The notes beneath the pieces were generated by a model. The model saw only the letters and a program-made list of their open reading frames with translations. It had not been told where the DNA came from and did not search any database. Source: a virus. Taken from it: DNA of 6,408 nucleotides. Every line of letters begins with the position of its first letter. The stretch's first letter is position 1. The position numbers were made by a program, and so were the translations under genes. Below are positions 1,969 through 2,560 of this stretch, piece by piece. The DNA is taken from IMG/VR virus record IMGVR_UViG_3300014685_000009, one strand, 5' to 3'.

Positions 1969-2181
1969 ATGAGACAGATAATCATGGCTTCAGTACAAAT
2001 CCGAGTTAGAGATGAATTGGCAGATAAAATTGAGACTACAAAATGGGAAATTAAATATAAATTAAGAATGGAAATACAGAATACTGATATTTTAAATGCC
2101 CTTATTTATAAGCACTTAGATAAATTAACTGAAGATGAAGTACTGGAGTATCGAAAGAAATTCTTAGGTAAGGATGACTAA
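1969..2181 (+). CDS. Small putative ribbon-helix-helix (CopG/Arc-like) regulator; candidate phage repressor transcribed divergently from Rep
   Basis: The 70-aa ORF (65 aa if it starts at the ATG at 1984) has an N-terminal SVQIRVRDELADKI segment (beta strand then helix). A second helix, DILNALIYKHLDKL, follows. Its position is analogous to rstR of CTXphi. It overlaps the next ORF by 8 nt. Confidence 0.45.
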   Translation: MRQIIMASVQIRVRDELADKIETTKWEIKYKLRMEIQNTDILNALIYKHLDKLTEDEVLEYRKKFLGKDD

Positions 2182-2560
2182 AATGACTATATCTAGTCTA
2201 GATAAAGCATATGAAGAAATTTATAAAGTGTTTGATAAAGTAACACCAACAGGTAGATTATCTAAAGTAAAGTCAAATCATATAAGAGCATTTCTATGTG
2301 TAGCAGTATGCATTGGACTAGAAAAAATAAAAAAAGATGAGAATCCTAAAGTATTTAATAGATATATTAAGGATTTAGAAAAGTGTGGAATTACAGAAGA
2401 ATTTATAAGAGAAGAGTTTGAAAAGCAGCAGTTTAAAAACAGAAATAAAAAAGTTGAATTTGTAGAGCTTAAATTTAGTAATGAAACTCCAGCTGATTAT
2501 ATATATCCAAAAAGCACTTTCAGTATGGATAACCTAAAAAATGATAGTGAAAAGTCCTAG
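2174..2560 (+). CDS. Stand-alone gene X-like protein: diverged paralog of the Rep C-terminal domain
   Basis: The 128-aa ORF aligns without gaps to Rep residues after the gX start. IYKVFDKVTPTGRLSKVKS compares with IHSVFDTYSKSGKLIKTKS. YIKDLEKCGI compares with YLTDLITCGF. VELKFSNETPADYIYPKSTF compares with VEIKFEEQTPDWYVEPVSTF, with 12/21 identical. An alternative start is the ATG at 2183, which has an AAGGA SD. Confidence 0.7.
   Translation: MTKMTISSLDKAYEEIYKVFDKVTPTGRLSKVKSNHIRAFLCVAVCIGLEKIKKDENPKVFNRYIKDLEKCGITEEFIREEFEKQQFKNRNKKVEFVELKFSNETPADYIYPKSTFSMDNLKNDSEKS

Follow-up and report, generated by a model that had tools for sequence, protein, structure and literature searches.

A stand-alone gene for a homologue of the pX replication domain in filamentous phages of Acinetobacter

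The closest described relatives of the gene reported here are the gene X products (pX) of the filamentous Ff phages (f1, M13 and fd). In these phages, pX is the in-frame C-terminal third of pII; balanced DNA synthesis depends on it, and in excess it strongly inhibits phage DNA synthesis. Fulford and Model are said to have found gene X essential for f1 DNA synthesis in 1984 and to have described pX as an inhibitor of f1 DNA synthesis in 1988. To our knowledge, the mechanism of pX has been obscure since the 1980s, as pX in Ff is inseparable genetically from pII without mutating both. In this report, we describe a pX-like gene that is encoded apart from the pII-type replication initiator (Rep) in IMG/VR virus record IMGVR_UViG_3300014685_000009, a stretch of 6,408 nucleotides (nt) that is referred to as a whole as the window. 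This gene, here termed the X-like gene, lies on the strand opposite to Rep, directly behind a small regulator-like gene.

A search of open-access papers and preprints found no stand-alone pX gene for filamentous phages, in keeping with a preliminary description of this DNA that knew of no such example, and it found no published description of a pX gene separated from pII in a repressor-side operon. Filamentous prophages of Acinetobacter baumannii have been described as "flanked by a replication/regulation module" and as forming tandem repeats, in an account that does not describe the X-like gene (PMC11209303). The features of the window that are central to this report are as follows.

2183 to 2560, plus strand: stand-alone pX-like gene, 125 amino acids (aa), homologous to the Rep C-domain; an alternative upstream ATG at 2174 gives 128 aa.
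646 to 1875, minus strand: pII-type replication initiator Rep, 409 aa from MLDKIEM; the mechanical open reading frame (ORF) reaches a GTG at 1923.
646 to 1002, minus strand: nested in-frame gene X, 118 aa, with ATG at 1002 and GAGGG upstream.
1984 to 2181, plus strand (ORF opens at 1969): small regulator-like gene, first of the putative two-gene plus-strand operon, 65 aa (70 aa from 1969); matches PHROG 5219 (unknown function) with E=1e-11.

Alignments show that the X-like ORF is truly homologous to the gene X domain at the C-terminus of the phage's own Rep. In a single BLASTP comparison, the two are 32% identical over 104 aa (Rep residues 320-419, E=2e-13), and the ORF matches PHROG 702 ("replication protein") at model positions 274-374 of 382 with E=7.7e-10. 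Two curated models match with lower scores: Pfam G2P_X_C (PF05155) at 20.4 bits (E=7.8e-4), under its gathering score of 25, and TIGR01629 (rep_II_X) at 21.3 bits versus a threshold of 29 (E=1.1e-4, model positions 297-407 of 407). When a profile of 8 X-like family members was compared by using hhalign with the C-terminal part of an alignment of 32 Rep sequences, the match had a probability of 99.5% and E=2.9e-23 over 117 columns. The reverse search with the family profile retrieves Rep C-termini, and some relatives of the X-like protein (P0002, P0010, P0179 and P0180) have precomputed PF05155 matches. The hhalign match extends from Met4 of the 128-aa ORF, which stands opposite the nested X Met, to the C-terminus. 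Thus, the stand-alone protein corresponds to the whole pX unit and not to an arbitrary fragment of Rep.

The preliminary description had proposed a diverged stand-alone paralogue of the Rep C-terminal domain, and the BLASTP, PHROG 702 and hhalign results bear this out. Its alignment was presented as gap-free, which is nearly correct: the block offsets differ by one residue, and aligners place an indel of 3-4 residues between the helical part and the tail. A recount reproduced exactly the 19 identities given for the 66 positions of the central block, and gave 11 rather than 12 for the 21 positions of the C-terminal block. The Pfam match that it suggested looking for lies in the right place and falls short of the gathering score. 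Its placement of a nested gene X start at 1002 agrees with what we find below, as does its remark that the stand-alone copy lies on the opposite strand in a more AT-rich module: the X-like gene has 27.0% GC and the regulator gene 29.3%, versus 38-48% for the other genes.

The X-like protein is present residue for residue in genomes of Acinetobacter radioresistens, where its NCBI label is "hypothetical protein". Some other members carry the automatic NCBI names "phage/plasmid replication protein, II/X family" or "replication domain-containing protein". Structure prediction added little: an AlphaFold2 model of the X-like protein (mean pLDDT, the model's confidence measure, of 80) gave nothing better than E≈1.3 in Foldseek searches of the PDB and BFVD. 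In the tail common to both proteins, block means of model confidence are 85-91 in full-length Rep versus 57-67 in the stand-alone protein, a hint of low weight that the shallow alignment of 8 sequences could explain.

Three findings favor ATG 2183 as the likely start of the X-like gene, and hence a product of 125 aa: the family's start column, occupied here by Met4, is invariant; AAGGA precedes the codon by 9-13 nt; and public gene calls begin at this codon. In Rep, the nested X Met at ATG 1002 lines up with the annotated pX starts of IKe and of an Ff phage, and is at least 90% conserved among the 32 Reps. Rep retains its nested X start, and the stand-alone X-like gene is therefore an extra copy. 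As a separate observation, the helical part of the X domain is repeated in tandem within the Reps of L006/L007 (Acinetobacter bohemicus, 493 aa), L044 (492 aa) and P0033, so this domain was duplicated more than once in the lineage.

To delimit the family, we used two kinds of search. A word-indexed search gave ten 90%-identity clusters of the X-like protein, all from Acinetobacter or metagenomes. When 1.84 billion 50%-identity representatives were searched exhaustively with a profile, just 38 matches appeared, of which about 10 are short stand-alone proteins and the rest Rep C-termini. X-like loci numbered 24 in IMG/VR and 1 in the GTDB species-representative genomes, and all named members of the family come from Acinetobacter. 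Searching phages and plasmids with the X-like protein by using tblastn retrieved Rep C-termini only, and no stand-alone member.

Several candidate members were set aside. Two profile matches, P0020 and P0039, are large NHL-type repeat proteins in which a repeated VTPAGRLSV-like motif has a chance likeness to TPTGRLSKV. Five others (P0025, P0026, P0029, P0037 and P0043) have the Rep-type LQNL signature and group with Rep C-domains, and so represent fragments or nested-X calls. True members share the signature TP(T/S)GR.SKV, CGITE(E/K)(F/Y)I and VEL.F..NNQ.P..Y..PKS, and they are basic, with an isoelectric point of about 9 and a Lys+Arg content of 18-22% in most members.

Intact X-like ORFs of 117-137 aa persist across members that are just 23-55% identical. 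Nei-Gojobori ratios of nonsynonymous to synonymous substitution (dN/dS) for independent pairs within the family are 0.09-0.16. These values mark the X-like ORF as a functional gene under purifying selection. They also bear on the idea that the ORF is a functionless, decaying piece of Rep left behind by recombination between tandem prophages. Such an origin would suit phages that form tandem arrays and are highly mosaic, and the copy at locus L034 is indeed frameshifted. The intact, diverged ORFs and their low dN/dS nevertheless effectively refute it; moreover, the limits of the ORF coincide exactly with the pX unit, and its translational coupling to the upstream gene is conserved. We therefore regard a decaying remnant as extremely improbable.

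A neighbor-joining tree of the stand-alone proteins, cognate and foreign Rep C-domains, and Ff and IKe pX places the stand-alone proteins in one clade (bootstrap 85.5% of 200 replicates), nested among Acinetobacter-type Rep C-domains. Because they form one clade, and because each protein is no nearer to its own Rep than to foreign Reps, we favor a single old duplication followed by shuffling over repeated recent duplications. By the same comparisons, the X-like copy did not originate by duplication inside this phage.

The X-like gene occupies a conserved position. In about 30 of roughly 31 distinct contexts, a small regulator gene immediately precedes it, and it is transcribed divergently from a Rep of the pII type. 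The spacing between regulator and X-like gene ranges across loci from an overlap of a few bases to a gap of 16 nt; in the window, the regulator stop codon occupies 2179-2181 and the X-like ATG is at 2183. A search for a terminator-like site between the two genes found none. The two genes are probably co-transcribed. The preliminary description had linked the X-like gene to a putative repressor gene, and the tight coupling is as it stated; the identification as a repressor comes from position and from equivalence to the regulators of relatives, as there is no significant Pfam match.

Acinetobacter phage M02 has a homologue of the window regulator, encoded by its divergent ORF of 64 aa. At the same position, relatives carry helix-turn-helix (HTH) proteins of the Xre type (HTH_3, 31.3 bits versus a threshold of 23; HTH_26, 22.8 versus 22). 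The window regulator is a presumed repressor by its position and its equivalence to these proteins, and its N-terminus looks ribbon-helix-helix-like. Candidate operators lie in the region between Rep and the regulator.

1876 to 1983, no strand assigned: divergent control region of Rep and the regulator, with clustered TGACAC half-sites at 1883, 1918, 1927 (inverted) and 1962.

TGACAC occurs 7 times in the window, versus 2.96 expected for its whole length, and 4 copies are in the intergenic region between Rep and the regulator. A palindrome, TGACACcctGTGTCA, occupies 1918-1932, and further repeats (D3 and I9) are present in the control region. Another TGACAC copy, at 2960-2965, where the match extends to TGACACAATGA, is found upstream of an ORF of 46 aa at 2767-2907 on the minus strand.

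The neighbors of the X-like gene have been exchanged among relatives. Upstream regulators belong to at least three unrelated types: the 65-71-aa type found in the window, the 63-67-aa regB67 type and Xre HTH proteins of 108-124 aa. X-like proteins that are 76-81% identical sit behind regulators of different folds (L030 versus L002, and L013 versus L008). Among L036/L037, L002 and L030, Rep N-domains that are 97% identical are fused to Rep C-domains that are 70% identical and accompany X-like proteins that are 47% identical. The recombination breakpoints in these Reps (L036/L037 versus L002 versus L030) separate the nuclease domain at the N-terminus from the X domain at the C-terminus, so the part of Rep that contains nested X also acts as an exchangeable module. 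Given these swaps, the regulator, the Rep N-domain, the Rep C-domain and the X-like gene each behave as separately exchangeable cassettes.

We propose for the X-like protein a role in trans as a negative regulator of rolling-circle replication driven by pII-type Rep, serving to maintain lysogeny or to exclude other inoviruses. We advance this tentatively, as a reading that in our judgment draws nearly as much belief as doubt; both the inhibitory direction and Rep as the target are inferred. In the proposed history, the pX domain was duplicated once, long ago, and the copy would have become the 3'-terminal gene of the regulator ("immunity") operon in integrating, CTXφ-like inoviruses of Acinetobacter. 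The operon of the regulator and X-like genes is the sole transcription unit opposite Rep and the virion genes. With this orientation, the X-like protein would be made with the regulator, from the double-stranded replicative form (RF) of the phage DNA or from the prophage, while Rep transcription is held down. It could thereby maintain the resident element in a silent or low-copy state, as a back-up at the protein level to transcriptional repression. It could also damp superinfecting or co-resident heteroimmune inoviruses and satellite mini-elements; this wider action is suggested by the conservation of the X-like protein while regulator and Rep types are swapped around it. Exclusion genes are commonly co-transcribed with prophage repressors, as are rexAB with cI in phage lambda.

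Several results weigh against this proposal. Homology alone is equally compatible with a positive role, Ff pX being required for normal synthesis of single-stranded DNA (ssDNA). Rep residues L366, Q367, N368 and L369, which follow a CG(F/I/Y)S turn, are invariant in the 32 Reps, and the corresponding residues are L-M-N-L in Ff and IKe pX. In all stand-alone members, this L-x-N-L is replaced by I-(R/K/I)-(E/K/D)-E, followed by a four-residue insertion, and the biochemical activity may have changed as a result. Identity of the stand-alone proteins is 26-28% with the C-domain of the resident Rep and reaches 33-37% with the C-domains of foreign Reps. Co-evolution of the X-like protein with its cognate Rep was considered and found no support: the Mantel correlation (r of 0.63-0.76) is driven by clusters of near-identical loci, and individual pairs contradict it (L030 versus L002, X-like 81% and Rep C-domain 63%; L030 versus L036, X-like 52% and Rep C-domain 83%). 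Some close relatives keep the regulator and have no X-like gene: M02, a second type of A. nosocomialis element and one L018 element. Pfam searches of the window regulator (65/70 aa) gave no significant match and no recognizable DNA-binding domain, and strict and relaxed sigma-70 scans for the regulator/X-like operon gave only weak candidates and no convincing promoter. Finally, the X-like protein, the regulator and the 46-aa ORF gave no defense-family match in PADLOC-DB at E<=0.1.

The positive role can be made more specific. The X-like protein might be a replication accessory factor that provides pX-like activity, required in f1 for ssDNA accumulation, from a promoter independent of Rep, and so starts or sustains replication of the prophage, RF or mini-element. 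Such a role would fit the full-length homology to pX and the reportedly essential function of gene X in f1 DNA synthesis, and the X-like gene travels with ssb, Rep and the regulator in mini-elements (described below) that carry replication functions only. However, the nested X start in Rep, with its Shine-Dalgarno sequence, implies that this function is already supplied in cis, and an operon opposite to Rep suggests expression with Rep off. The L-x-N-L motif is lost, and M02-type relatives replicate without an X-like gene. On balance, we consider a positive factor unlikely.

The proposed negative regulation could also operate more broadly. One chromosomal locus (L038) contains a distant, orphan member of the family, P0015 (133 aa), at 5001-5402, alone between genes for rubredoxin/rubredoxin reductase and transaldolase on a bacterial chromosome. 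Its gene has 29% GC versus 42-48% in the flanks, and it was found in 7 contigs. An inspection of its surroundings for phage genes, a regulator, attP or a dif-like site found none of them; P0017, to which it is most closely related, has an HTH partner as usual. The orphan fits a function that is useful without a cognate phage. Accordingly worded, the broader idea is that the pX domain could serve as a portable, free-standing immunity factor that blocks the pII-type rolling-circle initiators of competing inoviruses or satellites whatever their repressor specificity, that is shuffled as a cassette behind interchangeable repressors, and that in P0015 would have been captured by the chromosome as a solitary anti-inovirus gene. 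We regard this as rather unlikely.

The X-like gene also lies close to a presumed integration site. The additional features needed for this part of the discussion are as follows.

2679 to 2777, minus strand: CTXφ-like attP, with two inverted dif-like XerC/XerD sites (2679-2707 and 2745-2777).
287 to 314, minus strand: third dif-like site, canonical 11-6-11 (ATTTCGCATAA-tgtata-ATATGTTAAAA), just 3' of the ssb gene at the other module edge.
314 to 634, minus strand: ssDNA-binding-protein-like gene (pV position) downstream of Rep, assigned by position; matches PHROG 4994 (unknown function) with E=4e-9.

The attP is about 120 nt 3' of the X-like gene. When 2560-2800 of the minus strand is folded as DNA, it forms a long forked hairpin on the viral strand (dG -40.9 kcal/mol, z=-5.05). 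The same dif-like site with a 7-nt spacer occurs downstream of the module in relatives, and related sites occur in all relatives checked. A. radioresistens carries the phage as a prophage, in which no further phage gene separates the X-like gene from host DNA. The phage thus integrates and is temperate, and its integration is presumably Xer-dependent. A break in homology at window position 2742 in IMG/VR variants of this phage was considered as an integration junction and rejected, as it is really the insertion of an IS30-family element. This element, which encodes a 341-aa transposase, lies between the attP hairpin arms in the variants L014 (~8471) and L015 (~3975), and would disrupt attP in them.

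The proximity to attP raises a further alternative, in which the X-like protein has been neofunctionalized into a DNA- or protein-binding factor that acts away from replication, either as a switch co-regulator or anti-repressor (RstC-like) or as an accessory of Xer integration and excision at the attP hairpin. The proteins are basic, the gene closes the prophage at some 120 nt from the attP with its forked hairpin, and the Rep-type LQNL has given way in a family with its own CGITEE(F/Y)I signature. Yet the sequence shows no link to any known family of DNA-binding proteins, anti-repressors or recombination directionality factors, an anti-repressor made from one transcript with the repressor that it opposes would defeat its own purpose, and the orphan chromosomal copy has neither attP nor a regulator nearby. 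We judge a function of this kind to be quite unlikely.

The mini-elements mentioned above consist of ssb, Rep, the regulator and the X-like gene. In A. radioresistens (L049/L050), they form tandem arrays without structural genes and with a period of 2463 bp, which matches the distance from the attP region to the third dif-like site at 287-314. Arrays with a period of 2776 bp also occur, and in A. nosocomialis (CP014019; L002/L003) the mini-elements likewise lie in tandem. Others are single in L042 or accompany complete prophages, as in A. haemolyticus and some IMG/VR contigs; loci L044/L045, L023 and L029 carry such elements too. These elements are apparently bounded by dif-like sites, in a satellite organization like that of RS1/RS2, and the ssb-like gene is kept as a member of the unit. 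Separately, three different element types occur in tandem at one A. nosocomialis locus that has no virion genes.

Turning to the rest of the window, a 105-bp terminal direct repeat indicates a complete circular genome of 6303 bp, and gene content identifies the phage as an inovirus (filamentous phage) of Acinetobacter. The genes are distributed between the strands as follows.

Minus strand: genes for the pII-type Rep, the ssb-like protein, the major coat protein, a pIII-like protein, pVI (DUF2523) and Zot/pI.
Plus strand: two credible genes only, for the 65/70-aa regulator-like protein and the X-like protein.

Rep matches Phage_CRI (E=9e-38), G2P_X_C (E=7e-16) and TIGR01629 (E=2e-80); it is 100% identical to an A. 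radioresistens protein and 47% identical to the Rep of phage M02. Megablast of the window against GenBank phages gave no match, so no near-identical phage is present there. Foldseek searches of the PDB with a Rep model (pLDDT 83.7) gave just weak TBP-like matches for the N-domain (E>=0.06), and PDB sequence searches with Rep and with the X-like family profile gave no meaningful match.

Directly after the X-like stop codon, a GC-rich stretch at 2560-2680 has low coding likelihood. It holds a hairpin with a 12-bp stem (2585-2596 and 2607-2618) and runs rich in CCTC and GTCGT, and it has no match in Rfam; it could be an origin, a packaging signal or a terminator. The 46-aa ORF at 2767-2907 has a good ribosome-binding site (GGAGAG) and overlaps one arm of attP, and it has no match in PHROGs, Pfam or PADLOC.

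The X-like gene uncouples the pX domain from pII: it is encoded independently, probably regulated independently and strongly selected, and it can be deleted or expressed without touching Rep. Questions about pX, such as what it binds and whether it inhibits or assists initiation, are therefore directly testable with the X-like protein. If the protein restrains replication, it would represent a post-translational layer of lysogeny and immunity in temperate inoviruses, and would help to explain why a single locus in Acinetobacter, in species of clinical relevance too, can house several distinct inoviruses and satellites in tandem. The small and apparently genus-restricted family limits how far the finding can be generalized.

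The nearest known counterparts are the pX proteins of Ff and IKe. The domain is collinear with these from the start Met to the C-terminus and of similar size (111-121 aa), and shares the motifs TP(S/T)G..S..K.RN, G.E, CG and the tail VE.xF..Q.P..Y..P.S.F. Unlike pX, which arises from an internal in-frame start in gene II and is by construction identical to the C-terminus of pII, the X-like protein is encoded by a separate, opposite-strand gene in the regulator operon and is 26-28% identical to the C-domain of the resident Rep. It also lacks L-x-N-L, has the four-residue insertion and is additional to nested X. By homology, the X-like protein belongs to the pX/G2P_X_C family, and it falls outside the strict definition of gene X.

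In organization, the locus resembles RS2/RS1 of CTXφ, in which rstR is divergent from rstA-rstB and rstC is present in RS1. The two share a regulator divergent from Rep, a forked-hairpin attP of two inverted dif-like sites, tandem arrays, mini-elements free of structural genes beside full prophages, and an extra small gene at the att-side edge of the module. They differ in that the extra gene here is a pX paralogue in the presumed repressor operon, unrelated to RstC, and in that Rep is of the pII type (Phage_CRI plus G2P_X_C). For the Acinetobacter phage, Xer dependence and the function of the regulator are presumed.

Accessory genes in the maintenance operon of a resident temperate element are also known from lambda, as rexAB with cI, and from Pf phages. 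The Pf lysogeny and exclusion genes are pflM and pfsE (PMC12328805). The X-like gene has no sequence relationship to any of these, and its proposed target would be pII-type replication.

Parts of initiators that modulate the full-length initiator or exclude competitors are represented by A* of φX174, the short π of R6K, Rep52/40 of AAV and engineered dominant-negative fragments of geminivirus Rep. Whereas these products come from the same gene as the initiator or from engineering, the X-like protein has a gene to itself, which evolves independently, is shuffled horizontally and is regulated on its own.

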